DNA from: Verrucomicrobiia bacterium
GTDB lineage: Bacteria > Acidobacteriota > Polarisedimenticolia > Gp22-AA2
Direction of reading: 5' to 3'
Length of the DNA stretch: 64,000 nt
Assembly (NCBI GenBank): GCA_035638075.1
Contig: DASRAU010000046.1
Span: 101,283-165,282, forward strand
This document shows, piece after piece, positions 10,307-45,845 of this stretch (positions are counted from its first letter, which is position 1; every line of letters begins with the position of its first letter). The position numbers were made by a program, and so were the translations under genes. The notes beneath the pieces were generated by a model that had not been told where the DNA came from, did not search any database, and saw only the letters and a list, made by a program, of their open reading frames with translations.

Positions 10307-11719
<1,413 letters not shown>

Positions 11720-14113: not shown

Positions 14114-14190
14114 CGTGCCTCCTTGCGAGTCTGAGTGGACGGTCGACGTGCCGGAGCCGTTCAACGCTCCGCTGCTCTCTTCACTGGCCC

Positions 14191-15264
14191 TCACTTCGCG
14201 TGCGCCTTCTCCCAGGCCCGCACCTTCATGCGGGCCGCGTCGAACAACCGCTCGTAGTTGCCGCGCAGGAATTTCGCGCGCGCGTCCGGCGTCAGTTTCG
14301 CCAGCAGCGGCGCGTACAGGTCATAGGTCTTGAGGTAGCTCTTCTGGTTCGACGGCGCGACCTCGTCGGTGCCGAACAGCACCCGATCGGGGTTGCGGTT
14401 GATGAAGTCGGCGGTCGCGGCGATCGACTCGGGGGAGGCCACGGCGTATTTCGCCACCTCGTCCCACGACAGATCGACGTACACGTTGCGGAGCTTCGCC
14501 ATCGCCAGGGCCCGCTCGATGATGCCGAGCTGGTCGCGGACGGGATGAACGATGCGCCCGAGCCCCATGTGGGCCCAGATGACGGTGGCGTCGGGGTGGC
14601 GCGACAGGAGCTCGCGGAGCTGCACGGCCGGGTACGGATCCTGTCCCGGCTTCGGGAAGGGCATGTCGATGTCGTTGTGCAGCAGGACCACCAGACCCGC
14701 CTCGGCGGCGAAGTCGAGGATGCGGTCGAGCGCCGGGTTCGTCAGGCTGGCGGTCTCGCCGGCGACCTTCGACGAGACGAACTCCTTGTGGATGGTGAAC
14801 TCGCCGATGCCGGAGAAGACCCCGGGGAAGGTCAGAAGCACCCGCCGGATGTGATCGGCGGCGTACATGTCGGCCGGGTTGAAGCCGGTGATCATCGGGT
14901 CGAAGCGCGCCTGCTCGCTCTTCGCGAGGGAGCGGTACGCCATGGCGATGAAGGCGTCGGTGAACGAGTAGTAGTAGAGAGGCGCGTCGGACTGGAGGTA
15001 ATACGTGGGCGCGAAATCCCCGCTGTTGCCGTACGACCAGGTCTGCTGCAGCGGGATGCCGAACAGCGCCACCCGGCCCACCTTGTCCCCCATGATCTTC
15101 AGGAACTCGCGGATGTCGGTGCCTTCCTGGACGTAGTTGGTCAGGTGGAAGTGGCAGTCGTTCACGACCTCCGCCGAGCCCGACGCCGGGGCCGGAGCGG
15201 CGCCCGCGGCGCCGTTCGCCAGGAGCGCCGCGAGCAGGACCGCGCCGGCAACTCGGAGCCGCAT
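14191..15264 (-). CDS. Secreted amidohydrolase-2-family (TIM-barrel metal-dependent) hydrolase
   Basis: 357 aa from ATG 15264. Signal MRLRVAGAVLLAALLANGAAGAAPA. N-terminal DCHFHL metal-binding motif and HMGLG. ATGA overlap with the upstream porin gene stop. Confidence 0.6.
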   Translation of the reverse strand: MRLRVAGAVLLAALLANGAAGAAPAPASGSAEVVNDCHFHLTNYVQEGTDIREFLKIMGDKVGRVALFGIPLQQTWSYGNSGDFAPTYYLQSDAPLYYYSFTDAFIAMAYRSLAKSEQARFDPMITGFNPADMYAADHIRRVLLTFPGVFSGIGEFTIHKEFVSSKVAGETASLTNPALDRILDFAAEAGLVVLLHNDIDMPFPKPGQDPYPAVQLRELLSRHPDATVIWAHMGLGRIVHPVRDQLGIIERALAMAKLRNVYVDLSWDEVAKYAVASPESIAATADFINRNPDRVLFGTDEVAPSNQKSYLKTYDLYAPLLAKLTPDARAKFLRGNYERLFDAARMKVRAWEKAHAK

Positions 15265-16832
15265 CAGAAATTCATCTCCATGTTGACGTGGTAGACATCG
15301 CCGTCGCCGCCGACCGGGTAGGGCACCGCCGCGTAACCGACGGGGCAGTTGTTCAGCCGGATCCACTCGGCGTTGAGCCGGAAGCCCCGCTTCTTCAGCG
15401 GATACCAGTTCGCCCCGGCGCGGATCTCCGTGCTGTCGCCGAAGTCACCGTTGATCTCCGCGCCGCCGGCGTAGAGTTGCAGCGCGTTCTTGATCACCAT
15501 GGCGGACGCCTGCACCTGGTAGCCGTCGTCGGTGATCGGCTCGAGCAGGTCGGTGCCGGGGCCCCTGTAGTCGCTCAGCCGGCGCCGGAAGTACTCCGCC
15601 TCGACCGAGAACCCCTTGTACTTGAAGCCGCCGTCGAGACTCGCCATCTCGTAGAGGACGTCGGTGACGTTGATGCCGACGCCGAAGAGATCGGGGGTGA
15701 AGATGACGCTGCCGTCGGTGAGGCGGATCTGGCTGTTCTCGATCGAGTCGGTCCCCGGCTGCGACTGCTGATTCTCATGACTCTTGGTGTAGTGCCCGGC
15801 GAGGCGGGTCGCGGGCTTCTCGTGCCAGTCGTAGTCGCCGAAGGTGCCGTACAAGCCGAACTCTCCCGTCGTCGGCAGCCACTGCAGCATGTACGACATG
15901 GTGTTCAGGCCGTTGTCGATCTGCGTGGCGCTGACGCCGAGCGTGCTCAGGTTGTTCCCGAGCATCACCATGTACTTGAGCTTGGTGGTCAGCTCCCCCT
16001 TGATCCAGGCGCCGCTCGTGTAGGAGCCGCGGAAGAACTCGTCCGACGTCAGCCGGTCGTCCACCCCGAGCCAGTAGGGGAACTGCCCTTCGGTGCTGCG
16101 GGTGCTCGGGAGGCTGGTGATGCCGGCGCCGAAAGTGACGAAGCGGTTGAAGGTCCACGACAGGTTCCCGGCGCCGACCACCTGCGCCGGATCCCCCTGC
16201 GAGGTGTTGGCCGACCAGACGTACAGGTAATAGCGCAGGCGCGGATCGAGGAACCAGCCCGAGAACGGCAGGAAGAACTTCACCAGCTGGATGTCCTCGC
16301 GCAGCTGCACGTTGTGCTCGTTGCCGAAGAAGTCGGTGTACGACGGCTCGAGGCTTTCCTGGTTCAGGTAGCGCGCGTAGGAGAAGAGCCGCATGTAGAT
16401 CTGGCCGTTGTCGCCGTCGAAGAGGAGGAACCCGGCGTTCGGCACGTACCGCGGCGCGCGCTGCTTCGTCGCGACCTTCTCCACCGCCTGCGACAGCTCC
16501 TCGCCGACCACGAACTCGCCGGTGCAGCCGTCCGAGACCCAGACGCCGTCATCGTCGTAGCCCCAGGTCTTGCCCAAAAGGCAGGACGCCTGTCCCGACG
16601 AGCGCAGCAGCGCCACCCCCTTGGTGGTGTTGGCGGGACAGTGGTTGCGCTCGCCGAGCTTCGAGGCGCACGTGATGGTGACCGCCTCCCGGGCTTTCTG
16701 CAGCTCGTGCGACTGCGGCTGGTCCACGGGAGGAGGCGGCGCGCCCTGGGCGATCAGCGCGGAGGGGAGGAGAGCCGTCACGGCGAGCCCCAGGAGGCCC
16801 GCCAGCGCGGCGGCCGGGACCTTGCCTCGCAC
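15264..16832 (-). CDS. Outer-membrane beta-barrel protein with N-terminal four-Cys DUF3011-like domain; GTG start
   Basis: 522 aa. Signal peptide, then ITCASKLGERNHCPAN..SCLLGKTWGYDDDGVWVSDGCTGEF (4 Cys; WG..DG.WV..GC motif), then about 400 aa of alternating beta-strand pattern ending ...MEMNF. Confidence 0.55.
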   Translation of the reverse strand: MRGKVPAAALAGLLGLAVTALLPSALIAQGAPPPPVDQPQSHELQKAREAVTITCASKLGERNHCPANTTKGVALLRSSGQASCLLGKTWGYDDDGVWVSDGCTGEFVVGEELSQAVEKVATKQRAPRYVPNAGFLLFDGDNGQIYMRLFSYARYLNQESLEPSYTDFFGNEHNVQLREDIQLVKFFLPFSGWFLDPRLRYYLYVWSANTSQGDPAQVVGAGNLSWTFNRFVTFGAGITSLPSTRSTEGQFPYWLGVDDRLTSDEFFRGSYTSGAWIKGELTTKLKYMVMLGNNLSTLGVSATQIDNGLNTMSYMLQWLPTTGEFGLYGTFGDYDWHEKPATRLAGHYTKSHENQQSQPGTDSIENSQIRLTDGSVIFTPDLFGVGINVTDVLYEMASLDGGFKYKGFSVEAEYFRRRLSDYRGPGTDLLEPITDDGYQVQASAMVIKNALQLYAGGAEINGDFGDSTEIRAGANWYPLKKRGFRLNAEWIRLNNCPVGYAAVPYPVGGDGDVYHVNMEMNF

Positions 16833-16834: not shown

Positions 16835-17386
16835 CTAGTCGACTTTGACGATGAGCGCGTTCGAATAGGTGACGTCGACGCGGTCGCCGGGCTTCACGCC
16901 CTTGAGGAGCTTCTTGTCCTCGACCCGGACGCTGACGGTGTGGTAGTCCCGGGCGAGGAAGGTGAGCACGCCCGAGCCGCGATCCACGTCCTTCACCAGC
17001 ACGGTCCCGGTCATCTGCCGGGTCACGGTACCGCCCGGCTTCGGCCCGGTGCCGCGGACGATCGACGCTTCCCCGCTCGCGGCGGCGGGCAGCGGCTGCC
17101 CCGGCTTGCGGACGCTCACCGCGATCGCTTCCGTGTACTCGAAGGTGACCGTGTCCCCGATCTGCAGCTCGTCGAAGCGCTGGATCCCGGGCTCGGCATA
17201 GAGGGTCTGGAGGTTGCCGTCTCTGTCCTTCAGGGACACGGTGCGGCCGGCGCGGTCGATCGCCTCGATCTTCGTCTTGAGGGTGATCGTCCCCTTCTTC
17301 TCGATCGGCTGCGGTTCCGCGGCGATCGCCGTCAGGGCCACGGCAAGCCCGATGCCGAGCGCGGCGACCAGCAGGATGCCTTTCAT
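16835..17386 (-). CDS. Secreted tandem CusF-like (OB-fold) two-repeat protein, paralog 1
   Basis: ATG 17386 with RBS GAGGAGGG; signal MKGILLVAALGIGLAVALTAIAAE. Two about 60-aa repeats (TITLKTKIEAIDRAGRTVSLKDRDGNLQTL..FDELQIGDTVTFEY and TGTVLVKDVDRGSGVLTF..LKGVKPGDRVDVTY). The repeats resemble CusF topology but lack its His/Met/Trp ligands. Confidence 0.6.
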   Translation of the reverse strand: MKGILLVAALGIGLAVALTAIAAEPQPIEKKGTITLKTKIEAIDRAGRTVSLKDRDGNLQTLYAEPGIQRFDELQIGDTVTFEYTEAIAVSVRKPGQPLPAAASGEASIVRGTGPKPGGTVTRQMTGTVLVKDVDRGSGVLTFLARDYHTVSVRVEDKKLLKGVKPGDRVDVTYSNALIVKVD

Positions 17387-17475: not shown

Positions 17476-18198
17476 TCAGACGGCCTTCAAACCCTGAGAG
17501 CGGAACATCGCGACGGCGCGTTCCGCGCTCCCGGACGACGGCGGCTCGGTGGCCTCGAGCGTGTAGTCCATCTTCAGCTCCTTCCACTTGAAGCGCCCCA
17601 GCTGGTGGAACGGCAGGACGTCCACGCGCTCGACGTTGCCGAGTTCCCGGCAGAATGTCGCGATCGGCTCGATGTTCTCCACGTCGTCGGTCAGGCCCGG
17701 GACGAGGACGAAGCGGACCCAGACGGGACGCCGCTTCGCCGCCAGGCGACGGGCGAAGTCGTGCACCGGGCCGACCGGCTGCCCGGTGAGCCTGCGGTGC
17801 CGCGCGTCGTCCCACGTCTTGAGATCGAGGAGGACCAGGTCGAAGGCCTCCAGCTCGGCGTCCGACAGGCGCTCGCCGAGGAAGCCGTTGGTGTCGAGCG
17901 CCGTGTGGATCCCCATCCGGCGCGCCGCCGTGGCCAGGTTCACGACGAAGCGGTCCTGCACCAGCGGCTCGCCGCCGCTGATGGTGAGCCCGCCCGACAT
18001 CACCTGGAGCCCGCTGCGGTACTTCGCCAGCTCCTCCGTGGCACGCGCCAGGGTCACCGGGATGCCGTTGCTCATCTTCCAGGTGTCCGGGTTGTGGCAG
18101 TAGAGGCACTTGAACTGGCAGCCGGTGGTCCAGACGACCACGCGCATTCCCGGCCCGTCCACGGCCGACGCGGTCGTGAACGAATGCAGGAACCCCAT
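17476..18198 (-). CDS. pflA: Pyruvate formate-lyase activating enzyme (radical SAM)
   Basis: 240 aa from ATG 18198. GFLHSFTTASAVDGPGMRVVVWTTGCQFKCLYCHNPDTW matches the PflA N-terminus including the CxxxCxxC radical-SAM motif. Confidence 0.85.
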   Translation of the reverse strand: MGFLHSFTTASAVDGPGMRVVVWTTGCQFKCLYCHNPDTWKMSNGIPVTLARATEELAKYRSGLQVMSGGLTISGGEPLVQDRFVVNLATAARRMGIHTALDTNGFLGERLSDAELEAFDLVLLDLKTWDDARHRRLTGQPVGPVHDFARRLAAKRRPVWVRFVLVPGLTDDVENIEPIATFCRELGNVERVDVLPFHQLGRFKWKELKMDYTLEATEPPSSGSAERAVAMFRSQGLKAV

Positions 18199-18293
18199 CT
18201 GTCCGGTCTGGAGTGCGGTGCGGACGTCCGCTTCGGGAACGCCCTCGCCGAGATGGACCCGCAGCTCGTAGGGGCTTTTCGCTTCGAGGTCGC

Positions 18294-20567
18294 TCACGAG
18301 GCGCCCGCGCCGTGGAACGTGCGGTTGATGACGTCCATCTGCTGCTCTTTCGACAGCCGCACGAAGTTGACGGCGTAGCCCGAGACCCGGATCGTCAGGT
18401 GCGGGTACTTCTCGGGGTGATCCATCGCGTCGAGCAGCGTCTCGCGGTTCAGGACGTTGACGTTCATGTGGAAGCCGGTCGATCCGAAGAAGGCGTCGAG
18501 CGCGCCGCGCAGGTTGGCGATGCGATCTTCGGGAACGCGGCCCAGCCCCTCGGGAAGGATCGACGCGGTCAGCGAGATGCCGTCCGCCGCGTCGCGGTAG
18601 GGGATCTTCGCGACCGACGAGGCGGAGGCCTGCAGCCCGTGGCTGTCGCGCCCGTGCATGGGATTGGCCCCGGGAGCGAACGGTTCCCCCTGCCGCCGGC
18701 CGTCGGGGGTGTTGCCGGTGTTCTTGCCGTAGACCACGTTCGAGGTGATGGTGAGCACCGATTGCGTGTGCAGGGCGTTGCGGTAGGTCGGGTACTTGCG
18801 CAGCATGGCCATGAAGGTGCTGACGACCCACGACGCCAGGTGATCCACCCGGTTGTCGTTGTTGCCGAACTGCGGAGACTTGCCCTCGACCTTGTAGTCC
18901 TTCACGAGGCCGGTCTCGTCCCGCACGACCGTCACCTTCGCGTGCCGGATGGCCGACAGGCTGTCGGCGACGACCGACAGCCCAGCGATGCCGAAGGCCA
19001 TCGTCCGCAGCGGCGCGTAGTCGTGCAGCGCCATCTCCAGCCGCTCGTAGGCGTACTTGTCGTGCATGTAGTGGATGACGTTCATGGCGTTGACGTACAC
19101 GCCGGCGAGCCACTCCATCATCCGCTCGAACTTCTCGATCACGTCCTCGAAGACCAGCGCATCCCCCTGCACCGGATCGAAACGGGGCGCGATCTGTTCC
19201 CCGCTCATCTCGTCGCGGCCGCCGTTGATGGCGTAGAGGAGGCACTTGGCGAGATTGGTGCGGGCGCCGAAGAACTGCATCTGCTTGCCCAAAAGCATCG
19301 GCGAGACGCAGCAGGCGATGGCGCCGTCGTCCCCCCAGGCGCGGCGCATCATCTCGTCGCTCTCGAACTGGATCGACGAGGTCTCGATGGCCACCTTCGC
19401 GGCGTAGCTGCGGAACCCGTCCGGCAGCTTCGGCGAGTACCAGATCGTCAGGTTCGGCTCGGGGGCCGGCCCCAGCGTGGACAGCGTGTTGAGGAAGCGG
19501 AAGGAGCTCTTCGTCACGAGCGCGCGCCCGTCGTCCCCCATGCCGCCGATCGACTCGGTCACCCAGGTCGGATCGCCGGCGAACAGCTCGTCGTATTCCG
19601 GGGTGCGCAGGAAGCGGACGATGCGCAGCTTGATGACGAAGTCGTCGAGGATCTCCTGCGCCTGCTCCTCGGTCAGCGTCTTCTCCGTCAGGTCCCGCTC
19701 GAAGTAGACGTCGAGAAAGGTGGAAGTCCGCCCGAGCGACATGGCGGCGCCGTTCTGCTCCTTCACCGCCGCGAGATACGCGAAGTAGAGCCACTGCACC
19801 GCCTCCCGGGCGCTTGTCGCCGGGCCGGAGATGTCGAAGCCGTAGGCTTTGGCCATCTCCTGCAATTCGCCGAGGGCGCGGATCTGCTCGCTCAGCTCCT
19901 CGCGGTCGCGGATGATGTCCTCGGTGGACATGCGCGCGTCGAGCCGGTTCTTCTCGTTCTGCTTGCGCTCGACGAGGCGCGCCACGCCGTAGAGCGGCAC
20001 CCGCCGGTAGTCGCCGATGATGCGCCCGCGCCCGTAGGCGTCCGGCAGACCGGTGAGGATGTGCGAGGAGCGGCAGCGGCGGATGTCGGCGGTGTAGGCG
20101 TCGAACACGCCGTCGTTGTGCGTCTTGCGGTATTTCGTGAACGTCTCGACGACGTGCGGGTCGGCCTCGTAGCCGTAGGTCTTCAGCGCCCCCTGCACCA
20201 TGCGGAAGCCGCCGTTGGGCATGATGGCGCGCTTGAGGGGTGCTTCGGTCTGCAGCCCGACGATGATCTCCCGCTCGCGCTCGATGTAGCCGGGCTGGTG
20301 CGCCAGAATACCGCTGGGGATCTGCGAGATGTCGAGGACCCCCTTCTTGCGCTCCTCGACGAACAGGACGTTCAGCTTCTCCCAGATTCCCTGCGTCCGC
20401 TTCGTCGCCCCGGCGAGGAACGCTTCATCCCCTTCGTACGGCCGGTAGTTCGCCTGGATGAAGTCGCGGACGTCGATCTCCCGCTTCCACAGGCCGTCGG
20501 CGAACCCGCGCCAGGCCTTCGTCGTGTCGATCGGCTTCTTGTCCTCTTTCACTTTCACCGTCTTCAT
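18294..20567 (-). CDS. pflB: Formate C-acetyltransferase (pyruvate formate-lyase)
   Basis: 757 aa from ATG 20567 (verified: [11 protein letters not shown]). Catalytic Cys pair (GAIACCVSP) and C-terminal glycyl-radical motif [11 protein letters not shown]. Confidence 0.9.
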
Positions 20568-20581
20568 CGCCCTCACCTTCT

Positions 20582-21763
20582 TCACAATCCCAGAAGCGCG
20601 GCGGTGTGCCGCGCGATCATCAGCTCTTCGTTGGTCGGCACCACCCACGCCGACACCCGGCTCTTCGCGGTCGAGATCCGCGGGCCGCCACGCTCGTTCG
20701 CCGCCGCGTCGATCTCGAGGCCGAGCCAGGCGCAGGCCTCGACGATGCGCCGGCGGATCTCCGCCGAGTTCTCGCCGATGCCGGCGGTGAAGACGAGACC
20801 GTCCAGCCCCTGGAGCGTCGCCGCCATCGCCGCGACGTGCTGCGCGGCCGAGGAGACGAAGTAGTCCACCGCGAGGCGCGCCTCGGGCGCGTCGTTCCCC
20901 ACCAGGTCGCGCATGTCGTTGCTGATCCCGGAGATTCCGAGCAGTCCCGACTTCTTGTAGAGGAGTGTTTCGATCTCCTTCCCCGACATCCCCATCCCCT
21001 GCACCAGGTACAGGACCGCGCCGGGATCGAGGCTCCCGGGCCGCGTTCCCATGCACAGCCCGTCGAGCGCCGTGAACCCGAGCGTGGTATCCAGGCTCTT
21101 CCCGTTCTTCAGCGCGCAGAGGCTGGCGCCGCTGCCGAGGTGCGCGACGACGACCCGCTTCAGGGCGATCTCCGGCGCCACCTCGGGCAAGATTGAGGCG
21201 ATGTACTCGTACGACAGGCCGTGGAAGCCGTAGCGCTGCATCCCGGCATCGCGGAACTCTTTCGGAAGCGGGACCAGCTCGGTGACCGCCGCGCGCCCAC
21301 GGTGGAACGAGGTGTCGAAGCAGGCGACCTGGGGCACATCCGGGAGCTTTTCGAACACCGCCTCGATCGCCGCCAGGTTGTAGGGGACATGGAGCGGCGC
21401 CAGGGGAATGAGCTTCTTGAGCTCCGACAGGCATCGCGCGTCGACCTTGACCGGCGCCGTGTAGGTGGGACCGCCGTGCACGACGCGGTGCCCGACGCCC
21501 AGCACCTTGCCTCCTCCGAACTTCGAACGCAGCCAGGTGGCGACGGCGTCGAGCACCGGCCCGCCGTGCTTCAGCGACGCGTCGAGCTCCTGCCCGGCCA
21601 GCGGCTTGCCCTGCGCGTCCTTCACCGTGAGCTGCGGCTTGGTGCCGATTCCTTCGATCTGCCCGCGCGCCTCGAGTTCGAGGGCCCCCTGGCGAGGGTG
21701 CCCGAAGACGCGGAACTTCAGGCTCGAGGATCCGGCATTGAGAACGAGGAGATGATCGCCCAC
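20582..21763 (-). CDS. ackA: Acetate kinase; GTG start
   Basis: 393 aa from GTG 21763 (GAGGGG 4 nt upstream). N-terminal [14 protein letters not shown], plus HRVVHGG and the ASKHD-superfamily pattern. Confidence 0.85.
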
Positions 21764-21771
21764 GGCGCCCC

Positions 21772-22716
21772 TCAGGCTTTCGGAGCGGGGGTGCCGCGCC
21801 GGGCGTGCGCCGCCAGCATGGCGACGGCGCACGAGGCGATGCGGGCCCGCACGCTGTCGGCCCGGCTGGTCAGGATGATCGGCACCTTCGCCCCGAGCAC
21901 CAGCCCGGCGCTGTCGGCGTTCGCCAGGAAGGTGAGCTGCTTGGCGAGGATGTTGCCCGCCTCGAGGTCGGGGGCCAGCAGGATGTCGGGGTCCCCGGCG
22001 ACCTCGGACGTGATCCCCTTGATCTTCGCCGCCTCGGCGCTGATGGCGTTGTCGAACGCCAGCGGCCCGTCCAGTATCGCGCCGGTGATCTGCCCGCGGT
22101 CGGCCATCTTGCACAGCGCCGCGGCGTCGAGGGTCGCCGGCATCTTCGACGTCACCGTCTCGACCGCGGCCAGGATGGCGACCTTGGGCTTGTCCCGTCC
22201 CAGCGACACGACGAGATCGATGGCGTTGCGCAGGATGTCCGCCTTGTCCTCGAGCGTCGGCGCGATGTTGATGGCGCCGTCGGTGACCACCAGGACCTTG
22301 TGGTAGGTCGGCACGTCCATCACGAAGACGTGGCTGATGCGGCGCGCCGTGCGCAGCCCTCCCTCGCGCGCCACCACCGCCCCCATCAGCTCGTCGGTGT
22401 GCAGGCTGCCCTTCATCAGGAGCTCCGCCTTCCCCTCGCGCACGAGGGACACCGCCTTCTCCGCCGACCCGTGGCTGTGCGGCGCATCGACGATCTCGTA
22501 CGGCTTCAGGTCGAGCTTCGCCGCGGCGGCGACCGCGGCGATCTTCGCCGCCGGCCCGACCAGGATCGGCTTGATGAGCCCGAGCCGCGCCGCCTCGACG
22601 GCGCCGGACAGCGCCGACTCGTCGCACGGGTGCGCCACCGCCGTGGGGATCGGCTCGAGCCTGGCGCAGCGCTCCAAAAGGGCTTCGTATTTCCCGGTTC
22701 CGGTCCTGGCGCTCAT
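21772..22716 (-). CDS. pta: Phosphate acetyltransferase, short form (phosphate acetyl/butyryl-transferase family)
   Basis: 314 aa from ATG 22716 (codon 68 of the track ORF). Pta/Ptb-family motifs. Lies 8 nt upstream of ackA. Confidence 0.75.
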
Positions 22717-22729
22717 CGAATGCTCCCGT

Positions 22730-23968
22730 TCACGTGGGACTGCGCACGGCCGCCGCGGTCGCGGGGAGGGCCCGCCCTGCCCGCCCGGTCTCCTTGAGCA
22801 GGAGAGTGAGGACGATCGCCCCGGCGATTCCGTAGAGAAGCGGCGTGAAGGCGGCGCGGTAGTGCTCCAGCGCCATGGTCGCGGCGCCCCCCGAGGCGCG
22901 CCGCAGCGCCGCGGCAAAGAGGGGGCCGAGCAGGGCGCTCAGCGTGAAGTTCACGAAATTGATGACACCCGTCGCCGTGCCTCCGAGGGACGGCGGGTTG
23001 GCCTCCTTCACGACGGTGTACGGGATCATCGCCGCGCCCGAGGCGACTCCCATGGCAAGGCCGACGACGTACGGCGGCAGCGCGTCCGCTCTGCCGTACA
23101 GGGCCCACGCCGTGCACGCGAACACCATCAGGGCGCCGCCGAGAATCACCGGCTTGCGCCGGCCGAGCCGGTCGGAGATGAACCCGAGCAGCGGACAGCC
23201 GACGATCCAGCCGAACGGAACCGCCGCCGATCGCAGCACCGCCTCGGCGTACTCGAGGCCGTGCCCCTCCTGCAGGTAGCGCACGCCCCAGACCATGTCG
23301 AAGATCGTCGTCGGAATGAAGAGCAGCCCCGCGATGAGCCCGCACAGGATCGACTGCGGGTTCCTGAAGACGAGGCCGAACGCCGCCGCCAGGCCCGGCT
23401 TCGAACCTCCCGCCGGGGCGGCCGGCTTCCCCTTCGGCAGGATGAGCATCAGCACCGCGCCGATGAGAAGCCCGGCGACGCCCATCCCGATCCAGAACGC
23501 GCGCCAGGTCACTCCCGAGGCGATGAGCGGCCCGACCGCGAACTGCCCCACCGATCCTCCCGCCATGCCGCACATCTGCGTCGCGCCGATGAGGGTCGCG
23601 GCTTTCCCGGGAGGGAAGGCGCGCGTGGCGACGTCGATCGCCCCGATCAGGGCGAAGACGCCCCCCGCCCCCTGGAGGAAGCGGCCGCAGCCCGCCGCGG
23701 CCGGATGGCCGGTCGCGAACAGCAGCGCTCCGATCCCGACCATCGCCGCCGCCGCCGGGACCACCCGCGCGGCCCCGAGCCGGTCCATGGCGGCGCCGGA
23801 GACCAGGCTGAACGGAGAGTAGCCGTAGTAGAAGAGCCCGACGAGGGACGCGACCGCGAGGGCGCTGATGCCGAGCCCTTCCGAGAGCTGCGGCAGCATG
23901 ACGGCGGGGCAGGAGCGGGCGACGTACTGGTAGAAATAGAACATCGCCAGGACGAACCACGCCGCCAT
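22730..23968 (-). CDS. MFS transporter (substrate unknown)
   Basis: 12 TM segments with the MFS loop motif DRLGRRK between TM8 and TM9. Start is either ATG 23968 or GTG 24004. Confidence 0.65.
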   Translation of the reverse strand: MAAWFVLAMFYFYQYVARSCPAVMLPQLSEGLGISALAVASLVGLFYYGYSPFSLVSGAAMDRLGAARVVPAAAAMVGIGALLFATGHPAAAGCGRFLQGAGGVFALIGAIDVATRAFPPGKAATLIGATQMCGMAGGSVGQFAVGPLIASGVTWRAFWIGMGVAGLLIGAVLMLILPKGKPAAPAGGSKPGLAAAFGLVFRNPQSILCGLIAGLLFIPTTIFDMVWGVRYLQEGHGLEYAEAVLRSAAVPFGWIVGCPLLGFISDRLGRRKPVILGGALMVFACTAWALYGRADALPPYVVGLAMGVASGAAMIPYTVVKEANPPSLGGTATGVINFVNFTLSALLGPLFAAALRRASGGAATMALEHYRAAFTPLLYGIAGAIVLTLLLKETGRAGRALPATAAAVRSPT

Positions 23969-24016
23969 CGCGGCCCCGACGCCGGGCCTGCCGCCGCTCC
24001 CCACGACCTGCCGGTC

Positions 24017-25651
24017 CTAGCAGAGCGTGACGGAGACCGCCAGGCCGCCTTCGGAGGTCTCCTTGTACTTCGAGTTCATCTCCTTGGCGGTGAGCGCCAT
24101 GGCGTTGACCGTCGTGTCGAAGTCGAGGCGCCGGTTCACGGGAATCTCGTTGCTCGCGATCATGAACCCGGTCCAGGACTTGATCGCGCCGAAGGCGCAG
24201 CGCTCGATGCACGGCACCTGCACGTAGCCCGCGACCGGGTCACAGGTCATGCCGAGATGGTGCTCGATCGCCGCCTCCGCCGCGTTGGCGACGACCTGGG
24301 GCGGGAAGTCGTGCGCCTGGGCGATGAGGGCGGCCCCCATGCCGGAGGCAACACCAATCTCCGCCTGGCAGCCGCCTTCCGCGCCCGACAAGGTCGCGTT
24401 GTGCTTGCACAGGTACCCGACCCCCGCGGCGGCGAGCATGCCGTTGCGCAGCTTCTCCGGGGGGAGCTTGCGTCCCCCTTCGCCGAGGCCGTACAGCACG
24501 GCCGGGATGACGCCGGCCGAGCCTCCGGTGGGGGCCGTCACGACGAGGTGGCCGCGGGCGTTTTCCTCCGAACCCGCGAGAGCGTACGCCGCGACGACGC
24601 CGAGCCCGCGCTGCTTCTCGTACTCATCGTCCATCGCCCGCTTGTAGACCTCCCCCGCCTTGGTCTTGAGCTTGATCGGCCCGGGAAGCGTCCCCTCCGG
24701 CATCGCGAGGCCCGACTTCACGATGTTGCTCATGGCCAGCATGATCTTGTCCACGAAGGCGTTGATCTCCGCCTCGCTCTTCCCGGAGACCGCCACCTCG
24801 TTGGCCATCACCACCTGCGCCACCGACAGGTTGTTCTTGGTGGCGTGATCCACCAGCTCCTTCATCGTGGCGTACGGGTATTTCGGCTGCCCCTTCTTCG
24901 GCGGCTGGTACCCCTTCCACTCGATGAAGCCGCCGCCGACCGAGTAGTACTCCTGCTCCAGGAGGACCTTGTTGGCCGGCCCCAGGAGCTTGCAGGTCAT
25001 GGTGTTCGGGTGCGGGAAGGTGCCGTCCTTCTTGTCGTAGATGATGTCCTTGAGCGACATGTTCAGCGTCTTGTCGCCGAACTTCACCGGGAAGGTCTGA
25101 TCCGGCTTGTCACGCAGGCTGTCGAGGAACTCGGGCTCGACCGTGGCCGGCTCCTTGCCGATGATCCCGGCGAGGCAGGCCCGCTCGGTGCCGTGCCCCA
25201 GACCGGTGGCGCTGAGGCTGCCGAACAGGTGCACCTTCAGGCCGGCCACCTGCGCGAGCGTCGCGGCCGGGAGCTTGGTGCAGCGCTGGTAGAAGTCGTA
25301 GGTGATGCGCATCGGGCCGATGGTGTGGCTGCTCGACGGGCCCGGACCGACCTTGTAGAACTCCTCGATGGTCGTCATGACCGGCCCCTTCGACTTCTTG
25401 ACGACGTCGAGCGTCGGCGCCAGGGTGGTGGCGGTCTTGCCGGCCGGCTTGGCGGCGGGTTTCGCCGCGGCCGCCGTGGCCGCCTCGACTTCGGTGGTCG
25501 TCTTCCCCGTCAGGACCGCGGCGGCCCCGACGACGGCGGTGCGCAGGATGAACGCGCGGCGGTCGACCCCCTCGGGGACCTCCTCGAGCACTTCGGGCTC
25601 CACCGGAACGGGGTTCTCCACGGGTTTCTTCGGATCGTCCTGCATGTTCAT
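24017..25651 (-). CDS. sdaA: L-serine dehydratase, single-chain Fe-S type, with N-terminal Tat (twin-arginine) signal extension
   Basis: 544 aa; strong RBS AGAGGAGG. N-terminal extension contains DRRAFILRTAVVGAAAVLTG (RRxFIL plus h-region) and an Ala/Lys/Thr-rich linker. The SdaA core then begins MTTIEEFYKVGPGPSSSHTIGPM, followed by beta and alpha domains. Confidence 0.8.
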   Translation of the reverse strand: MNMQDDPKKPVENPVPVEPEVLEEVPEGVDRRAFILRTAVVGAAAVLTGKTTTEVEAATAAAAKPAAKPAGKTATTLAPTLDVVKKSKGPVMTTIEEFYKVGPGPSSSHTIGPMRITYDFYQRCTKLPAATLAQVAGLKVHLFGSLSATGLGHGTERACLAGIIGKEPATVEPEFLDSLRDKPDQTFPVKFGDKTLNMSLKDIIYDKKDGTFPHPNTMTCKLLGPANKVLLEQEYYSVGGGFIEWKGYQPPKKGQPKYPYATMKELVDHATKNNLSVAQVVMANEVAVSGKSEAEINAFVDKIMLAMSNIVKSGLAMPEGTLPGPIKLKTKAGEVYKRAMDDEYEKQRGLGVVAAYALAGSEENARGHLVVTAPTGGSAGVIPAVLYGLGEGGRKLPPEKLRNGMLAAAGVGYLCKHNATLSGAEGGCQAEIGVASGMGAALIAQAHDFPPQVVANAAEAAIEHHLGMTCDPVAGYVQVPCIERCAFGAIKSWTGFMIASNEIPVNRRLDFDTTVNAMALTAKEMNSKYKETSEGGLAVSVTLC

Positions 25652-25689
25652 CCTCCTCTTTCGTAACAGGTCTGTCCCGCCGCGATCGA

Positions 25690-26235
25690 CTACTCGACGG
25701 CGACGAGCAGTGCGTTCGTGTAGGTGATCTCCACTTTGTCCCCCGGGTGGACGTTCTTCACCAGGCTCTTGTCCTCCACGCGGACGCTGACGCTGTGGCC
25801 GTCCTCGCCCATGAAGGTGATCGAGCTGTTCTTCGTGTCGACCGCCTTCACGGTGACGGACGCGGTGACCTGCTGGGTCATCGTGCCGCTCGGCTTCTCG
25901 GTCGCGCCGCGGACGATCGCCGGCTGGCCGTCGGAGTTCGCCTGGACGGGGTCACCCGGCTTGCGGATGCGCACCGCCACCGACTCGGTGTACTTGAAGG
26001 ACACCTTGTCCCCGACCTTCAGCTCGTCGAACCGCTTGATCTCGGGCCCGGCGGTGAGCGTCTCGTAGTTGCCGTCCTTGTCCTTGAGCGTGACCGTGCG
26101 GGCGGCATGATCGATCGCCTCGATCGTGGTCTTGACGGTGACCGTGCCGGTCTCGATCTTCGGCTTCGCATCGGCCGCGAACAGGGGAGCGGCGGCGAGG
26201 AGCACGGCGGCGACGGTGAGCGAGGTCTTCTGCAT
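25690..26235 (-). CDS. Secreted tandem CusF-like two-repeat protein, paralog 2
   Basis: ATG 26235 (AGGAGGG RBS); signal MQKTSLTVAAVLLAAAPLFAADA. Repeats TVTVKTTIEAIDHAARTVTLKDKDGNYETL..FDELKVGDKVSFKY and VTASVTVKAVDTKNSSITF..VHPGDKVEITY. Confidence 0.6.
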   Translation of the reverse strand: MQKTSLTVAAVLLAAAPLFAADAKPKIETGTVTVKTTIEAIDHAARTVTLKDKDGNYETLTAGPEIKRFDELKVGDKVSFKYTESVAVRIRKPGDPVQANSDGQPAIVRGATEKPSGTMTQQVTASVTVKAVDTKNSSITFMGEDGHSVSVRVEDKSLVKNVHPGDKVEITYTNALLVAVE

Positions 26236-26452
26236 GAGGCGATCCCTCCTGGGCATCGATGAGTTGTCTGAAACGGCCGAAGCATAGTCCCATTCCTCGA
26301 GGCGCGGCGAATCTCTTTTTTTGAGCTCGAGGAGGAGGGTGGCGGGGATGCCAGGATTCGCGCCGGTTTCCCGGCCCCTCCCGGCCGGATGGAGAGTCCC
26401 GCGTGCGCAGCGCCATCGACTCGCTCATCCAGACGCAGAGACCTCTCTCCAG

Positions 26453-27997
26453 TCACTCCTTCCCCGATTCGGGCTGGGTTGCCAGGGTCGAAGTGATTCG
26501 ATCCCGGATCACCTGGAAAAAAGGATTGCTGCGGAGCCGTGCGAAGGCGCCGAGTGGGACGAGGAGGGCGCCGGACTCGCCGCGGGCCTCGAAGGCGCCG
26601 AGCTGGAAGCGCGGCTCGGCGGGCGCCGGGGCGATTCCGTAAACCGGATCGTCGGGGGGGATGGGCAGGGCGACATGGCCGAGGGAGAAGACGCCCTTGG
26701 GCCACTCGAACGGCAAGTCCTCGTGACGTTCGCCGCCGGCCGCCGCGTCGGCCGGGCTCGGGGGGGCGCCCGCCTCGCGCTCGAACAGGGCGACGGCGTT
26801 CGAGCCGTCGGGGCGATTGCCGACGATCGTCACGCGGAACGGCAGCGACGGAACGGCGCGCAGATTCTGCAGCGTCTGGGTCGGGCCCGGAGCGATGAGC
26901 CCTTCCATCTCGCTGCGGCGGTTGATGTCGAAGACGACCAGCTCGTTTCCCGGGCCGGGGAGTCTCGAGAGCAGGCCGTGCACCACCTCCGCGGCGGTCA
27001 CGGTCGAGTCGACCAGCGACTGGAACACGGTGACGCGCGGCATCCGGTCGAGGCGTTTCTTCTCCCCCGCCTCCACGAGCTCCGCGTTCAGGACGTGCGT
27101 CAGCGCGTAGATCTGGTTGCCGGCGTTCACCGGGAACGAGTTGTACTTGTACGGGTCGTATTCCGGCAGGACGTCGATCCACTGCGACTTCTCGAAGGCC
27201 GGCAGGAACGACAGCCCCGAGACGATGTTGGTCAGCACCGCGAACGGCGAGATGCCGATGGCCGGCGACACCAGGAAGAGCCGCTCGGGGCGCGGCAGCG
27301 AGTCGTCCGCCGCCGCCCGCACGGCATAGAGCGAGAGCAGGGCGGAGCCGGTCGAGTGCCCGGCGGCGAAAAACGGGTGCCCCGCGCCGGCGCGCGAGGC
27401 GGTGTAGCGCGCCGCGAGCGCGACCGCGGCATACCAGTCCTGCCAGGTGACGTCCCGCAGCGCCCCGGGGATCGTGCCGTGTCCCGGAAGGCGCAGCACC
27501 ACGACGTCGAATCCCTGGGCGAAGAAGACCTGGGCGATGCCGCGCATGCTGTAGGGCGAATCCGACAGCCCGTGCACCAGCAGCACCGCCCCGCGGGGCG
27601 TCGTCGCGGGGGTCAGCTCGTAGGAATGGTTGTGCTCGGTGTCGAGCGCGAGGCGCTCGGGGACGCTGCCTGGATGGTAGCGGCTCAACAGGAACGGGTC
27701 GGCCGCCTTCGGATCGTCCAGCACCTTTTTCCGCAGCTCGGCGAACAGCCGATCCTCGAGCTTGCGGTACTCCTCGAACGTCTTGGGCGCTCCATGGGCA
27801 CCCTGGGCGCCGGCGCGGAATTCCTCGTCGAGACGCACCTTGTGCCAGGCGTGCAGGTCGGAGAGCCGGACGCGCGCCTGGATCGCGAACAGGAGAACGA
27901 TGCCGCCGAGGGCCGACAACGCCAGCGCGGCGACGGCCAGGAAGGTTTTTCCCAGCCGTCGCCGCCAGCGGCCCGGTGGAGCAGGGTGGGGGCCCAT
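26453..27997 (-). CDS. Alpha/beta-hydrolase-fold protein (lipase/esterase-like), N-terminally membrane anchored
   Basis: 514 aa. N-terminal TM FLAVAALALSALGGIVLLFAI. Nucleophile elbow GHSTGS and LLVHGLSDSP motifs. Confidence 0.65.
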   Translation of the reverse strand: MGPHPAPPGRWRRRLGKTFLAVAALALSALGGIVLLFAIQARVRLSDLHAWHKVRLDEEFRAGAQGAHGAPKTFEEYRKLEDRLFAELRKKVLDDPKAADPFLLSRYHPGSVPERLALDTEHNHSYELTPATTPRGAVLLVHGLSDSPYSMRGIAQVFFAQGFDVVVLRLPGHGTIPGALRDVTWQDWYAAVALAARYTASRAGAGHPFFAAGHSTGSALLSLYAVRAAADDSLPRPERLFLVSPAIGISPFAVLTNIVSGLSFLPAFEKSQWIDVLPEYDPYKYNSFPVNAGNQIYALTHVLNAELVEAGEKKRLDRMPRVTVFQSLVDSTVTAAEVVHGLLSRLPGPGNELVVFDINRRSEMEGLIAPGPTQTLQNLRAVPSLPFRVTIVGNRPDGSNAVALFEREAGAPPSPADAAAGGERHEDLPFEWPKGVFSLGHVALPIPPDDPVYGIAPAPAEPRFQLGAFEARGESGALLVPLGAFARLRSNPFFQVIRDRITSTLATQPESGKE

Positions 27998-28050: not shown

Positions 28051-28761
28051 TTACTTGTGCGAAGGCTTGACGCTCAGGAGCAGAGCGTTCGTGTAGGTGA
28101 TCTCGACGCGGTCCCCTGCCTTGACGTTGTCCAGGAGATCCTGGTCGTCGACCTTCACGGTCATCGTCCGGCCGTCGTCGGTCTCGAACGAGATCGATCT
28201 CTCGCTCGGATCGACGTCCTTGACGGTGACGAGGGACGTGACCTGCTGCGTCAGGGAGCCGGTGTTGGTGCCGGAAGGGCTGGCCGCGCCGCTTCCCGCT
28301 CCGCCGCCCGGAGCCCCGGGCTCCTTGGTCGGCGTGCCGGGGGTCGGCGCGCCGGAGGGGGTGTCCATCCCCGACGGCGTCTGAGGCGCACTCGAGGGAG
28401 TGTCGGATTCGTCCTCCGGGTATCCGGACGCCGGCCGCGGGGCCATGGTGTCGGCTTCGTCCGCCGGCCGGATCTGGAGAGCCCGGCCCTCGACGTACTT
28501 GAACGTGGCCCGCTCCCCGACCTTCAGGGAGTCGAAGGCCCCGATGTCGGAGCCGGCCTGGACCGTCACCAGATCACCGTCCTGATCCTTGAAGGTGACG
28601 GTGCGGGTCGCGGGATCGATGGCCTCGACAGTGCTCTTGACCGTGACGGCGTCACCGGACTTTTTCGTCTCCGTCGACTTGTGATCGGGGTGCCCGCTGT
28701 CGGCGGCCAGGAGCGGCAGCGCGACGAGGCAGGCGGACAGGAACAGAACCGTTTTCTTCAT
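28051..28761 (-). CDS. Secreted tandem CusF-like two-repeat protein, paralog 3, with Pro/Ser/Gly-rich linker
   Basis: ATG 28761 with RBS AAGGAGAG; signal MKKTVLFLSACLVALPLLAAD. Repeats AVTVKSTVEAIDPATRTVTF.. and LVTVKDVDPSERSISF..VKAGDRVEITY are separated by a low-complexity PSG-rich linker. Confidence 0.6.
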   Translation of the reverse strand: MKKTVLFLSACLVALPLLAADSGHPDHKSTETKKSGDAVTVKSTVEAIDPATRTVTFKDQDGDLVTVQAGSDIGAFDSLKVGERATFKYVEGRALQIRPADEADTMAPRPASGYPEDESDTPSSAPQTPSGMDTPSGAPTPGTPTKEPGAPGGGAGSGAASPSGTNTGSLTQQVTSLVTVKDVDPSERSISFETDDGRTMTVKVDDQDLLDNVKAGDRVEITYTNALLLSVKPSHK

Positions 28762-28816: not shown

Positions 28817-29467
28817 TCAGTCTTCAGGCTCGCAGCTGACGAGCACCGCGTTGGTGTAAGTCATCTCGATCTGGTCGCCGGCGTGCAGGTTCTTCACCAG
28901 GTCCCGATCGTCCACGTGAGTGCTCACGGTGTGGCCGTCCTCGGTTTCGAAGGTGATCCAGTGTCCTTTCGGATCCACGTCCTTGACCGTGACGACCGAC
29001 GTGACCTGCTCGCCCACCAGGGAGACGGGTTCATCGCCGGAGGGACCGTACTCCGTCGGGCTGCCCGCCGCCGCGGCGGACTCATCGCCGCCCGGAGCGC
29101 TGCCGGACGGACTGTCGTAGGGGGCGCCGCTGGGGTCGCCGCCGGAAGGATTGGTGACATGTGTTCCGGCCTGGCCCGCCGGGTGGGTCTGGAGGACCAC
29201 CCCTTCGGTGTAACGGAAAGTCACCTTGTCCCCGACCTTCAGGTCGTCGAAGCCCTGCACGTCGGGTCCGGCCTGGACCGTGACCAGGTGGCCGTCCCGA
29301 TCCTTGAGCGTGACGGTGCGGGCGGTGTGGTCGATCGCCTCGACGGTGGTCTTGACCTTGACGGTGTCGGACTTCGAGACCGAGGGCCGGTCCTCCGCGG
29401 CATAAAGAGGCGCCGCCAGGAGGGCGGCGCCGAGAACGAACGCGGCTTTCTTCAGCATGGACTTCAT
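28817..29467 (-). CDS. Secreted tandem CusF-like two-repeat protein, paralog 4
   Basis: C-terminal real part of the 1725-aa track ORF. ATG 29467 (RBS GGAGGAGG), signal MKSMLKKAAFVLGAALLAAPLYAAE, same two-repeat architecture. The remainder of the track ORF is antisense to the RND genes and rejected. Confidence 0.6.
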   Translation of the reverse strand: MKSMLKKAAFVLGAALLAAPLYAAEDRPSVSKSDTVKVKTTVEAIDHTARTVTLKDRDGHLVTVQAGPDVQGFDDLKVGDKVTFRYTEGVVLQTHPAGQAGTHVTNPSGGDPSGAPYDSPSGSAPGGDESAAAAGSPTEYGPSGDEPVSLVGEQVTSVVTVKDVDPKGHWITFETEDGHTVSTHVDDRDLVKNLHAGDQIEMTYTNAVLVSCEPED

Positions 29468-29566
29468 CACGAAACCTCCTCCGCACTCCCGGACCCAAGC
29501 AGGGTAAAAGCCGCTCCCGTCCGACTCCATACCCCGGACCACGCAAGCCCGGGACAGAATCCTCGC

Positions 29567-29572
29567 TATAAT
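29567..29572 (+). promoter_or_regulatory. Candidate -10 hexamer (TATAAT) for the RND efflux operon
   Basis: Perfect TATAAT 30 nt upstream of the adaptor ATG (29603), in the 135-nt divergent intergenic region. No clear -35 element. Confidence 0.35.
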
Positions 29573-29602
29573 CCCGTCCGCTCGAGGATCCGGGGTCAAT
29601 CG

Positions 29603-30817: not shown

Positions 30818-30820
30818 GCG

Positions 30821-33800: not shown

Positions 33801-33991
33801 GCGCCTCCGGCGCCGGCGCCGAGGGGCGCAAGGTCATGGGGATGGCGGTGTTCGCCGGCATGCTCGTCGCGACCATCGTCGGCGTCGTGCTGATCCCGGT
33901 CCTGTTCACCTTCGTCGAGAAGATCACCGGTGGCGGCAGGCACAAGCCGGCGCCCCCCGGCGGCGAAACCAAGCCGGCGGCGGCGCACTGA
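30821..33991 (+). CDS. RND multidrug efflux permease, HAE1 (AcrB/MexB-like)
   Basis: 1056 aa. N-terminus MAKFFVNRPIVAMVLSIVTVLLGLVALTRVPVAQYPDIVPP is nearly collinear with AcrB. 12 TM segments plus two large periplasmic loops. Confidence 0.9.
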   Translation: MAKFFVNRPIVAMVLSIVTVLLGLVALTRVPVAQYPDIVPPMIQITTTYVGASAVDVEQSVATPIEQQVNGVDNSIYLKSINANDGTLTMRVSFEVGTDLDIANVLTQNRLSQATASLPTSVKNYGVTVKKSLAFPLMLVALKSPNGTYDSAFLSNYAAININDALARIRGVGQVNLFGGSDYAMRIWLNPDRLASLGLTVPDIVKAVQQQNVVTPAGQLGGQPAPPGTDFTYIVKTQGRLMTAEEFGSIVLRTNPDGSQVRLGDVARTELGSLLYTARGRLNGNPSAVIAIYQAPGSNALQVSDAIKKTVAEAASRFPSDLDYEFSLDTTLPVREGINEILHTLLEAVVLVLIVVFIFLQNWRATLIPLLTVPVSLVGTLMAFPMLGFSVNVLSLLGLVLAIGIVVDDAIVVVEAVMHHIEHGLTPKDATLKAMEEVSGPVVAIALILSAVFVPVAFISGITGRLYQQFAITIAISVLLSAFNALTLSPALSAMLLKPKGESKSFLDPFYKWFNRVFDRFTSGYVGLTGFMVKRMVRSLIVVAILIVATVMLARRIPGGFVPEEDEGYVMVNVQLPDAASLDRSDAVCKRVEAILGKTEGIASYTTVTGYSMLTSAYASNNAFFFVSLKPWHERHGAAHTSRGIMAELNHEFALTIPEATVFAFGPPAIPGLGTGSGFTFVLQDRSGQAPQYLADEAQKFVAAASKRPEIGRIITTYRASVPQVYAEVDRDKVLKQGVTIDDVNTTMGAFLGGSYVNDFNRFGRVYKVFVQAEPEYRVRREDLSLFHVRNSKNEMVPLSSFVSTANAAGPEYTNRFNLFRSADLTGIPAPGYSSAQALGALEQVAAETLDAGAGYDWADMSYQEKKAAGSSAVVFAFAILLVFLILAAQYESWSLPFSVLLGTPFAAFGAFLGLWLMRFLSESYVNNVFAQIGLVMLIGLAAKNAILIVEFARAKLHEGMPIVEAALEGAKLRFRPILMTAFAFILGVVPLVRASGAGAEGRKVMGMAVFAGMLVATIVGVVLIPVLFTFVEKITGGGRHKPAPPGGETKPAAAH

Positions 33992-33992
33992 C

Positions 33993-41978: not shown

Positions 41979-41981
41979 CGC

Positions 41982-45306: not shown

Positions 45307-45845
<539 letters not shown>

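Follow-up and report, generated by a model that had tools for sequence, protein, structure and literature searches.

A serine-to-acetate fermentation cassette with a predicted Tat-exported serine dehydratase in soil bacteria of several phyla

In a 64,000-nucleotide stretch of contig DASRAU010000046.1 (assembly GCA_035638075.1; "the window" below, with positions counted from its first letter), the minus strand carries a cassette of six genes, sdaA-MFS-pta-ackA-pflB-pflA, whose enzymes very probably form a route from serine to pyruvate, on to acetyl-CoA and formate, and through acetyl phosphate to acetate and ATP. Its first enzyme, the single-chain iron-sulfur (Fe-S) L-serine dehydratase SdaA, begins with a twin-arginine translocation (Tat) type signal that is kept in all of its closest database relatives, and is probably exported to work outside the cytoplasm. 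In the model that we favor, with a rough probability of 0.55 based on sequence comparison, serine would be deaminated in the periplasm, pyruvate would be taken up, and acetate, formate, and ATP would be made inside the cell when oxygen is scarce. A previous inspection of the same DNA by eye (the sequence-only reading) had proposed the serine-to-acetate-plus-formate route. The enzyme set does form that route, but the idea of one cytoplasmic chain gives way, the first step being predicted periplasmic.

Since the window has ca. 70% G+C, long spurious open reading frames (ORFs) abound, and the real frames were picked by third-position G+C (GC3) and then confirmed with profile searches. The cassette and the gene preceding it are as follows (bit scores are given vs the cut-off), all five enzymes scoring over the NCBIfam curated cut-offs.

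25690-26235, minus strand: CusF-like paralogue no. 2, 181 amino acids (aa), signal-bearing, weak CusF_Ec match (28 bits)
24017-25645, minus strand: SdaA, single-chain Fe-S L-serine dehydratase, 542 aa, SDH_beta and SDH_alpha domains (TIGR00720, 396.4 vs 345.1 bits)
25379-25645, minus strand: N-terminal extension of SdaA, 89 residues, Tat-type signal and linker, with the arginine pair at 25556-25561
22730-23968, minus strand: major facilitator superfamily (MFS) carrier, 412 aa from the ATG at 23968, or 424 aa if the GTG at 24004 is used (MFS_1, 123 bits)
21772-22716, minus strand: Pta, short (Ptb-like) phosphate acetyltransferase, 314 aa (NF008852, 521.1 vs 413 bits)
20582-21763, minus strand: AckA, acetate/propionate kinase, 393 aa (TIGR00016, 352.3 vs 293.4 bits)
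18294-20567, minus strand: PflB, pyruvate formate-lyase (PFL), a glycyl-radical enzyme, 757 aa (TIGR01255, 1110.7 vs 994.2 bits)
17476-18297, minus strand: PflA, the radical-SAM enzyme that activates PFL (TIGR02493, 274 vs 232 bits)

The seven genes at 17476-26235, their order, and their strand had all been given by the sequence-only reading, and the profile searches agree with it. The gaps of 8 nt from pta to ackA and of 14 nt from ackA to pflB that it reported are exact, 13 nt separate the MFS gene from pta, and the pflB stop overlaps the GTG start of pflA by 4 nt. These short gaps (8 to 14 nt) and the overlap point to co-translation of the cassette genes. The start of pflA is ambiguous: the GTG at 18297, chosen by gene callers, gives 273 aa and the overlap with the pflB stop, and the alternative ATG at 18198 gives 240 aa and matches the N terminus of E. 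coli PflA. In sdaA, a GGAGG lies 6 nt ahead of the second ATG. On a metagenome contig from ENA whose PflB is identical, gene calls made independently agree with these gene models. The co-directional string noticed previously is also real, but the true one is about three times longer (20 genes over 25 kb of the minus strand, from 29467 down to 4533) and covers asparagine, aspartate, and glutamine catabolism as well (see below).

No sign of decay was seen in the cassette enzymes, which from their conserved residues look functional. Aligned to E. coli PFL (1H16), PflB keeps the Cys-Cys pair (Cys418/Cys419) within AIACCVSPM and the glycyl-radical motif RVSGYAV (Gly734 in E. coli), and PflA carries its CX3CX2C motif as CQFKCLYC. 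The sequence-only reading had allowed that PflB and PflA might prove non-functional through a missing radical glycine or catalytic cysteine; both proteins are intact in these residues, so that it is not refuted on this ground. SdaA, which aligns from residue 88 onward with the Legionella enzyme 4RQO, conserves the cysteines of GCQ, TCDP, and PCIERC as well as the C-terminal cysteine, and all of these are invariant in a 25-sequence alignment of the family (A1). PFL is active only without oxygen, and both it and the Fe-S cluster of SdaA are oxygen-sensitive by established biochemistry. The reverse, assimilatory direction (acetate and formate to pyruvate to serine) was considered and rejected because the reaction of SdaA is irreversible.

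The predicted export signal of SdaA is the feature on which the periplasmic placement turns. The extension runs from an n-region through GVDRRAFILR and the hydrophobic h-region TAVVGAAAVLTG to K-TTTEVEA/A, an AxA-type cleavage site, followed by a linker of Ala, Pro, and Lys. An uncharged stretch of 12 residues comes directly after GVDRRAFILR, and the whole arrangement fits the Tat consensus, S/T-R-R-x-F-L-K with an uncharged h-region and a cleavage site. By alignment, the extension is missing in E. coli TdcG, whose residue 1 pairs with residue 90 of the window protein, and in the SdaA of Legionella. The clade stands sharply apart: in a protein library clustered at 50% identity, it is represented by one full-length sequence (69% identity), and the next full-length relatives outside it, at 46% identity, are without the extension.

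Conservation within the clade is strict. The twin-arginine motif G-V-D-R-R-x-F was present in every one of the 120 closest database relatives (77 to 94% identity, 96 to 100% coverage), and D28, R29, R30, F32, and R35 are invariant in alignment A1. Exactly 19 residues past the first arginine, 69 of the 120 relatives have a cysteine, mostly within an L/M-T-G-C lipobox, and in 38 others this position is Arg or Lys and AxA-like sites follow. In genuine signal peptides, sites for signal peptidases I and II replace one another in evolution while the arginine pair and the h-region stay fixed, and the combination found here is what real signal peptides show. Of the curated models, Tat-signal models alone match N termini of the clade: TIGR01409 matched 26 of 57 at E ≤ 0.01, one of them scoring 19.5 bits vs a cut-off of 16.7, and the window N terminus matched only TIGR02811 ("formate dehydrogenase region TAT target"), weakly (18 bits, E = 0.0025). 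The conserved Tat signal thus leads to the prediction of a periplasmic SdaA. No tat genes lie within the window, and nothing on a Tat-dependent or periplasmic serine dehydratase was found in the literature searched. Three distant SdaA-like proteins (P0290, P0291, and P0307; 40 to 42% identity, 493 to 502 aa, each in a separate 50%-identity cluster) also have Tat- or lipoprotein-like N termini, which begin MDRRDFCKL, MTLRRTFLKMAG, and MNLHKRCFLKNCAFGCAALGC, respectively. Export of serine-dehydratase-like enzymes may, to judge from these sequences, have evolved on more than one occasion.

At least 588 relatives of SdaA were recovered when one genome per species was scanned. The best 80 loci all lie in metagenome-assembled genomes (MAGs). 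Their labels include Vicinamibacteria/Vicinamibacterales, Bryobacteraceae, Paludibaculum, Solibacteraceae, Terriglobia, Thermoanaerobaculia, "Ca. Polarisedimenticolia," Steroidobacteraceae and other Gammaproteobacteria, Myxococcota/"Deltaproteobacteria," Binatia, Gemmatimonadales, and Verrucomicrobiia. The gene order downstream of sdaA was read by tblastn with the window proteins in the 59 related loci that have at least 8 kb of flank:

MFS-pta-ackA-pflB-pflA: 30 loci
pta-ackA-pflB-pflA without MFS: 8 loci
cassette without pta: 3 loci
pta-ackA, with or without MFS: 6 loci
MFS only: 5 loci
nothing: 5 loci
other partial arrangements: 2 loci

The cassette sdaA-[MFS]-pta-ackA-pflB-pflA is therefore found in 38 of the 59 loci, or in 41 when the three without pta are counted, and with the same order in most related loci the arrangement is not one of chance. 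The genes upstream of sdaA vary between loci. Cassette-bearing loci were labelled as six or more phyla and have about 65-83% amino acid identity to the window; by protein, the values are ca. 80% for SdaA, 65% for the MFS carrier, 77% for Pta, 66% for AckA, and 80% for PflB, regardless of the phylum label. A neighbor-joining tree of SdaA, PflB, and Pta was star-like; some phylum labels clustered and others were intermixed. This distribution fits horizontal spread of the cassette followed by vertical inheritance, as a reading of loci whose MAG labels can be wrong and that were compared without a vertical marker. A recent transfer into the window genome was rejected: the GC3 of the cassette genes (0.91 to 0.96) equals that of the rest of the window, and any transfer must therefore be old. 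PLSDB held no plasmid with a Tat-type SdaA; its matches were all under 60% identity (39% for the best listed), and the best ones listed align only from about residue 83-89 of SdaA. The sequence-only reading had set the fermentation genes beside an ADOP permease typical of Acidobacteriota, a group mostly regarded as aerobic. The cassette is no peculiarity of this replicon or of that phylum, being common to many soil lineages. Nothing on this cassette was found in the literature searched.

The MFS carrier follows sdaA in 41 of the 59 loci. It had been suggested that it might belong to the OFA (formate/oxalate) family, which the searches do not bear out: the window protein has no match to the OFA model TIGR00890 at E ≤ 0.001, only 10 of 24 members of its family match that model (best 6e-7), and OxlT ranks 44th among the Foldseek matches of its AlphaFold2 model (predicted local distance difference test [pLDDT] 78.6). 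For all 24 members the ACS model TIGR00893 came out best (4e-26 at most significant) and OPA second. The window protein scores 68 bits on TIGR00893 vs a cut-off of 395, so that ACS is its nearest family but not one to which it belongs, and all family-model scores are far under the family cut-offs. Searches of PDB sequences with the single protein and with a 24-sequence profile gave no match. By structure, FLVCR2, SfMCT, G6PT, VMAT, and DgoT score alike and do not discriminate, VGLUT2 also appearing among the anion-carrier matches; the source annotation is just "MFS transporter." From these comparisons, the carrier appears to form an MFS subfamily of its own, with organic-anion carriers as its closest kin. 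For an SdaA that works in the periplasm, the simplest task of the carrier would be to take up pyruvate, which we consider its most plausible import substrate; serine uptake or export of acetate or formate are possible alternatives.

Taken together, the cassette would serve substrate-level phosphorylation under oxygen-poor conditions. The 4Fe-4S enzyme SdaA, soluble after cleavage by signal peptidase I in the window genome or lipid-anchored in most relatives, would deaminate L-serine to pyruvate and ammonium in the periplasm, and the adjoining MFS carrier would bring the pyruvate into the cell. There PflB, activated by PflA, would cleave it to acetyl-CoA and formate, and Pta and AckA would turn the acetyl-CoA into acetate with a gain of one ATP. 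Within this scheme we infer the export of SdaA, pyruvate as the substrate of the carrier, and expression without oxygen. A broader version can be drawn from the same sequences, to which we would give slightly less than an even chance. It envisages a clade of Tat-exported 4Fe-4S SdaA proteins, about half of them lipoproteins, that deaminate serine in the periplasm as part of a phylum-hopping cassette and yield ATP under anoxia in nominally aerobic soil bacteria; the cytoplasm would thereby also be spared ammonium and the reactive 2-aminoacrylate, which would account for the missing RidA/TdcF gene, and the MFS carriers would constitute a new family for pyruvate uptake.

Several observations weigh against the model with a periplasmic first step, and some of them favor an all-cytoplasmic route, which we regard as unlikely. 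In such a route the SdaA extension would not export the protein but serve as a regulatory tail or as a membrane tether on the cytoplasmic side, or be left over as a relic, and the MFS carrier would import L-serine, in the manner of TdcC with TdcG, TdcE, and TdcD. The window N terminus does not reach the TIGR01409 cut-off (the profile search returned no match to this model), and the exposed iron of a 4Fe-4S cluster would make it highly sensitive to oxygen in the periplasm, so that its lability speaks against that site. In addition, the characterized SdaA-type enzymes are all cytoplasmic, the 4RQO structure has no signal, and in the tdc operon the transporter beside the dehydratase is a serine/threonine importer. 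However, a relic would not be expected to keep RR-x-F and the h-region in 120 of 120 relatives, with a lipobox-type cysteine at +19 in 69 of them and AxA-type sites in others. Moreover, the extension is matched only by Tat-signal models, the distant SdaA-like clusters independently have RRxFLK-type N termini, and the carrier, if weakly, resembles organic-anion rather than amino acid carriers. The favored model is also weakened by what the surroundings lack: no regulator, FNR box, or promoter was found, and neither a formate channel nor a formate dehydrogenase or hydrogenase was seen among the window ORFs scanned. The MFS gene is absent from about a quarter of cassettes, and with a carrier that is partly missing and whose family is not assigned, pyruvate import is a guess.

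Two further explanations concern what the genes are for. The cassette might mainly be a periplasmic ammonia generator for nitrogen scavenging or acid protection, in which the deamination of serine, asparagine, and glutamine outside the cytoplasm would release NH3/NH4+, with PFL, Pta, and AckA merely disposing of the carbon and ATP not being the selected function. Three or four deaminating or amidohydrolytic enzymes of the string carry export signals, and periplasmic deamidases do have pH and nitrogen roles in other bacteria; yet the tightest and most conserved linkage of the Tat-type SdaA is to pta-ackA-pflB-pflA, not to the other deaminases, and PFL works only without oxygen, which ties the linkage specifically to fermentation. 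We consider this explanation quite improbable. Hardly any weight is left for a neighborhood without joint function, in which PFL, Pta, and AckA would ferment pyruvate in general (e.g., from sugars) and sdaA and the MFS gene would just lie next to them. Such a view could invoke the relatives with SdaA alone or with SdaA and MFS only (five loci each) and the lack of any regulatory element found to tie the genes together, but it sits badly with an order that is kept with short gaps in 38 to 41 of the 59 loci, across several phyla and with differing flanks, and with gaps of 8 to 14 nt and a 4-nt overlap that suggest co-translation.

The closest analogue among known systems is the E. coli operon tdcABCDEFG, with 38% identity of the window SdaA to TdcG, 59% of PflB to TdcE, and 42% of AckA to TdcD. 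Both bring together an Fe-S dehydratase, a formate-lyase, a kinase, and a transporter, and both would give ATP from a hydroxy-amino acid without oxygen. Unlike tdc, the cassette is without the pyridoxal phosphate-dependent threonine dehydratase TdcB, the RidA-type TdcF, and the regulators TdcA and TdcR; BLASTP found no TdcB, TdcC, or TdcF match among the 20 proteins of the string. Its transporter is an MFS protein instead of a TdcC-type carrier, the cassette also includes pta and the gene of the PFL activase, and SdaA, in contrast to TdcG, carries a Tat-type signal. From pyruvate on, the chemistry is that of E. coli focA-pflB-pflA with ackA-pta, and the active-site motifs of PflB are identical. 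Differences from this mixed-acid branch are that the ORFs scanned include no FocA-type channel and that the search for an FNR box came up empty, that Pta is of the short Ptb-like kind (NF008852) and not of the 714-aa E. coli type, and that the genes are joined with sdaA in one string.

The combination of a periplasmic deamidase with uptake of the resulting acid is known from AnsB-DcuA-AspA in E. coli and from AnsB and GGT with DcuA/GltS in Helicobacter and Campylobacter. The window is similar in that it encodes asparaginase II and glutaminase A, both with signal peptides, along with aspartase, a DASS carrier, and an Asp:Ala antiporter. Conversion of serine to pyruvate by an exported Fe-S dehydratase would go beyond this logic and is not described in the literature searched. 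With Legionella 4RQO and E. coli SdaA, the window SdaA has in common the single-chain fold family of two domains, the cysteines of the cluster, and the one at the C terminus, but it differs by the 89-residue Tat-bearing extension and has only 38 to 46% identity to signal-less relatives. Tat-exported Fe-S proteins include the small subunits of hydrogenases and subunits of formate dehydrogenase and DMSO reductase, which are folded in the cytoplasm and then exported and which thus offer a precedent. These known passengers are redox enzymes of respiratory chains, whereas SdaA is a non-redox dehydratase. Four things appear to be new, from the sequences compared: a serine dehydratase with a predicted export signal, the constancy with which it is linked to PFL, Pta, and AckA, an MFS carrier that fits no family model, and how widely the cassette is distributed.

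Soil Acidobacteriota and their neighbors are usually modelled as aerobes, and soil aggregates become anoxic within hours of wetting. The cassette would offer a concrete survival route under such conditions, from serine (and via the neighboring genes from asparagine and aspartate) to acetate, formate, and ATP, common to Vicinamibacteria, Bryobacteraceae, Thermoanaerobaculia, Steroidobacteraceae, Myxococcota, Binatia, Gemmatimonadales, and others, and it probably contributes formate and acetate to wet soils. Were SdaA indeed exported, a family that textbooks place in the cytoplasm would have its first periplasmic member and the Tat pathway a new kind of passenger, and an uncharacterized MFS family would become a candidate pyruvate importer.

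The other features of the 25-kb string, in the order of its transcription, are as follows.

28817-29467, minus strand: CusF-like paralogue no. 4, 216 aa, signal peptide, first gene of the string, weak CusF_Ec match
28051-28761, minus strand: CusF-like paralogue no. 3, 236 aa, with a Pro/Ser/Gly-rich insert between two beta-barrel halves
26453-27997, minus strand: alpha/beta-hydrolase, 514 aa, N-terminal membrane anchor (Hydrolase_4, 47 bits)
26236-26452: largest intergenic gap of the string, 217 nt, candidate promoter region
16835-17386, minus strand: CusF-like paralogue no. 1, with a profile match and aligned with the other paralogues
15264-16832, minus strand: DUF3011 protein with signal peptide and a long beta-rich, outer-membrane-like C-terminal part
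14191-15264, minus strand: Amidohydrolase_2 enzyme with signal peptide (periplasmic)
12860-14116, minus strand: DcaP-like outer-membrane porin
11797-12837, minus strand: glutaminase A with signal peptide (periplasmic; NF009020, 428 vs 395 bits)
10307-11719, minus strand: aspartate ammonia-lyase (cytoplasmic; NF008909, 711 vs 510 bits)
8890-10296, minus strand: DASS-family anion symporter (TIGR00785, 314 vs 199 bits)
7217-8893, minus strand: aspartate:alanine antiporter family transporter (TIGR03802, 632 vs 547 bits)
6131-7207, minus strand: type II (periplasmic) L-asparaginase with signal peptide (TIGR00520, 438 vs 314 bits)
4533-6131, minus strand: NAD-type malic enzyme (malate to pyruvate), last gene of the string (NF010052, 675 vs 326 bits)

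All gaps in the string are of 89 nt or less except the one of 217 nt, and the string as a whole is presumably co-transcribed. By its predicted gene products it is an amino acid catabolic island that would lead from asparagine through aspartate to fumarate, from malate to pyruvate, from glutamine to glutamate, and from serine to pyruvate. The cassette would be one arm of it, under a shared logic of deaminating outside and importing the organic acid. The periplasmic asparaginase and glutaminase would act outside the cytoplasm, the porins, the Asp:Ala antiporter, and the DASS carrier would move substrates across the membranes, and the cytoplasmic aspartase and malic enzyme would channel asparagine and aspartate to pyruvate too. 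Genes for asparaginase, aspartase, DASS carrier, glutaminase, amidohydrolase, DcaP-like porin, and malic enzyme are found close to the cassette in several other loci too (e.g., L017, L018, L032, L038, and L042), and the DUF3011 protein is also found near it in L022 and L042. The alpha/beta-hydrolase adjoins the cassette only in the nearest relative, L002.

Four CusF-like paralogues (ca. 180 aa, periplasmic, two of them with low-complexity inserts) are interleaved through the string. The family has 728 database homologues and accompanies the cassette only in the nearest relatives. Identity as a CusF copper/silver chaperone is not borne out: scores on CusF_Ec (PF11604) are marginal, at or under the cut-off (23 to 28 bits vs 27), and the His/Met/Met/Trp metal site is not conserved, no conserved His, Met, Trp, or Cys ligand being found in a 24-sequence alignment (A3) in which the four paralogues align together. 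An AlphaFold2 model of paralogue no. 2 (pLDDT 71) has two small beta-barrels, with weak matches to Mop, TOBE, and OB folds (E > 1e-3). The start of the string abuts a divergent resistance-nodulation-division (RND) efflux system on the plus strand (29603-35444; membrane fusion protein, AcrB-type HAE1 pump, and outer-membrane factor), and the intervening 29468-29602 could hold promoters for both.

That the cassette is under anaerobic control is a hypothesis, built on both PFL and the cluster of SdaA being sensitive to oxygen. The sequence-only reading had suggested FNR-type sites upstream as a check, and none turned up in the intergenic regions near the operon. The pattern TTGAT-N4-ATCAA with up to two mismatches was not enriched, with 7 matches vs 4.2 expected, none in 25646-25689, 26236-26452, or 29468-29602, and no FNR-type regulator was seen among the window ORFs scanned. 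A scan of 16 to 30 kb found no sigma-70-like promoter, with terminator-like sites at chance level. The 217-nt gap has no conserved block in comparison with the nearest relative, and Rfam gave no match for either the window or three related loci.

A different element was seen in related loci. The palindrome CTCC-N8-GGAG, which is not present in the window, occurs in 20 of 69 related loci, mostly of Vicinamibacterales type, and 18 have the longer CTCCG-N6-CGGAG (0.05 expected by shuffling). It lies ca. 175 to 205 nt upstream of the sdaA start (e.g., in L004, at ca. 9733-9770, and in L009, L060, L003, and L016), often with a second, weaker copy, CCTCCGG-N4-5-CGGGAG, 19 to 20 nt further upstream, and travels with the cassette while the upstream genes differ. 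This upstream palindrome has no Rfam match. Its half-sites are conserved without compensatory changes, and it therefore looks like a putative tandem operator that binds a protein, not like an RNA structure. In L004, a locus of Vicinamibacteria type, a divergently oriented fragment upstream of the tandem palindromes (8424-9260, minus strand) has an AAA+ Walker A motif, GETGTGKE, typical of sigma-54 activators; the fragment was not seen in the other loci inspected.

The window proteins are identical to NCBI entries HYV20917-HYV20937, which are labelled "Verrucomicrobiae bacterium" and annotated as formate C-acetyltransferase, L-serine ammonia-lyase, etc. A MAG labelled "Ca. Polarisedimenticolia" (Acidobacteriota) supplies the cluster mates, at ≥90% identity, of several window genes, and the ADOP permease that the sequence-only reading had noticed is indeed present at 60789-63209 (TIGR03434, 911 vs 622 bits). 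From these cluster mates and the permease it follows that the Verrucomicrobiae label is doubtful and the lineage probably acidobacterial. Elsewhere in the window the genes are unrelated to the cassette; among them, 41089-47358 (minus strand) holds at least three GNAT acetyltransferase genes, one of them with two GNAT domains, together with genes for DUF1697, DUF5946, and DsbA-like proteins.

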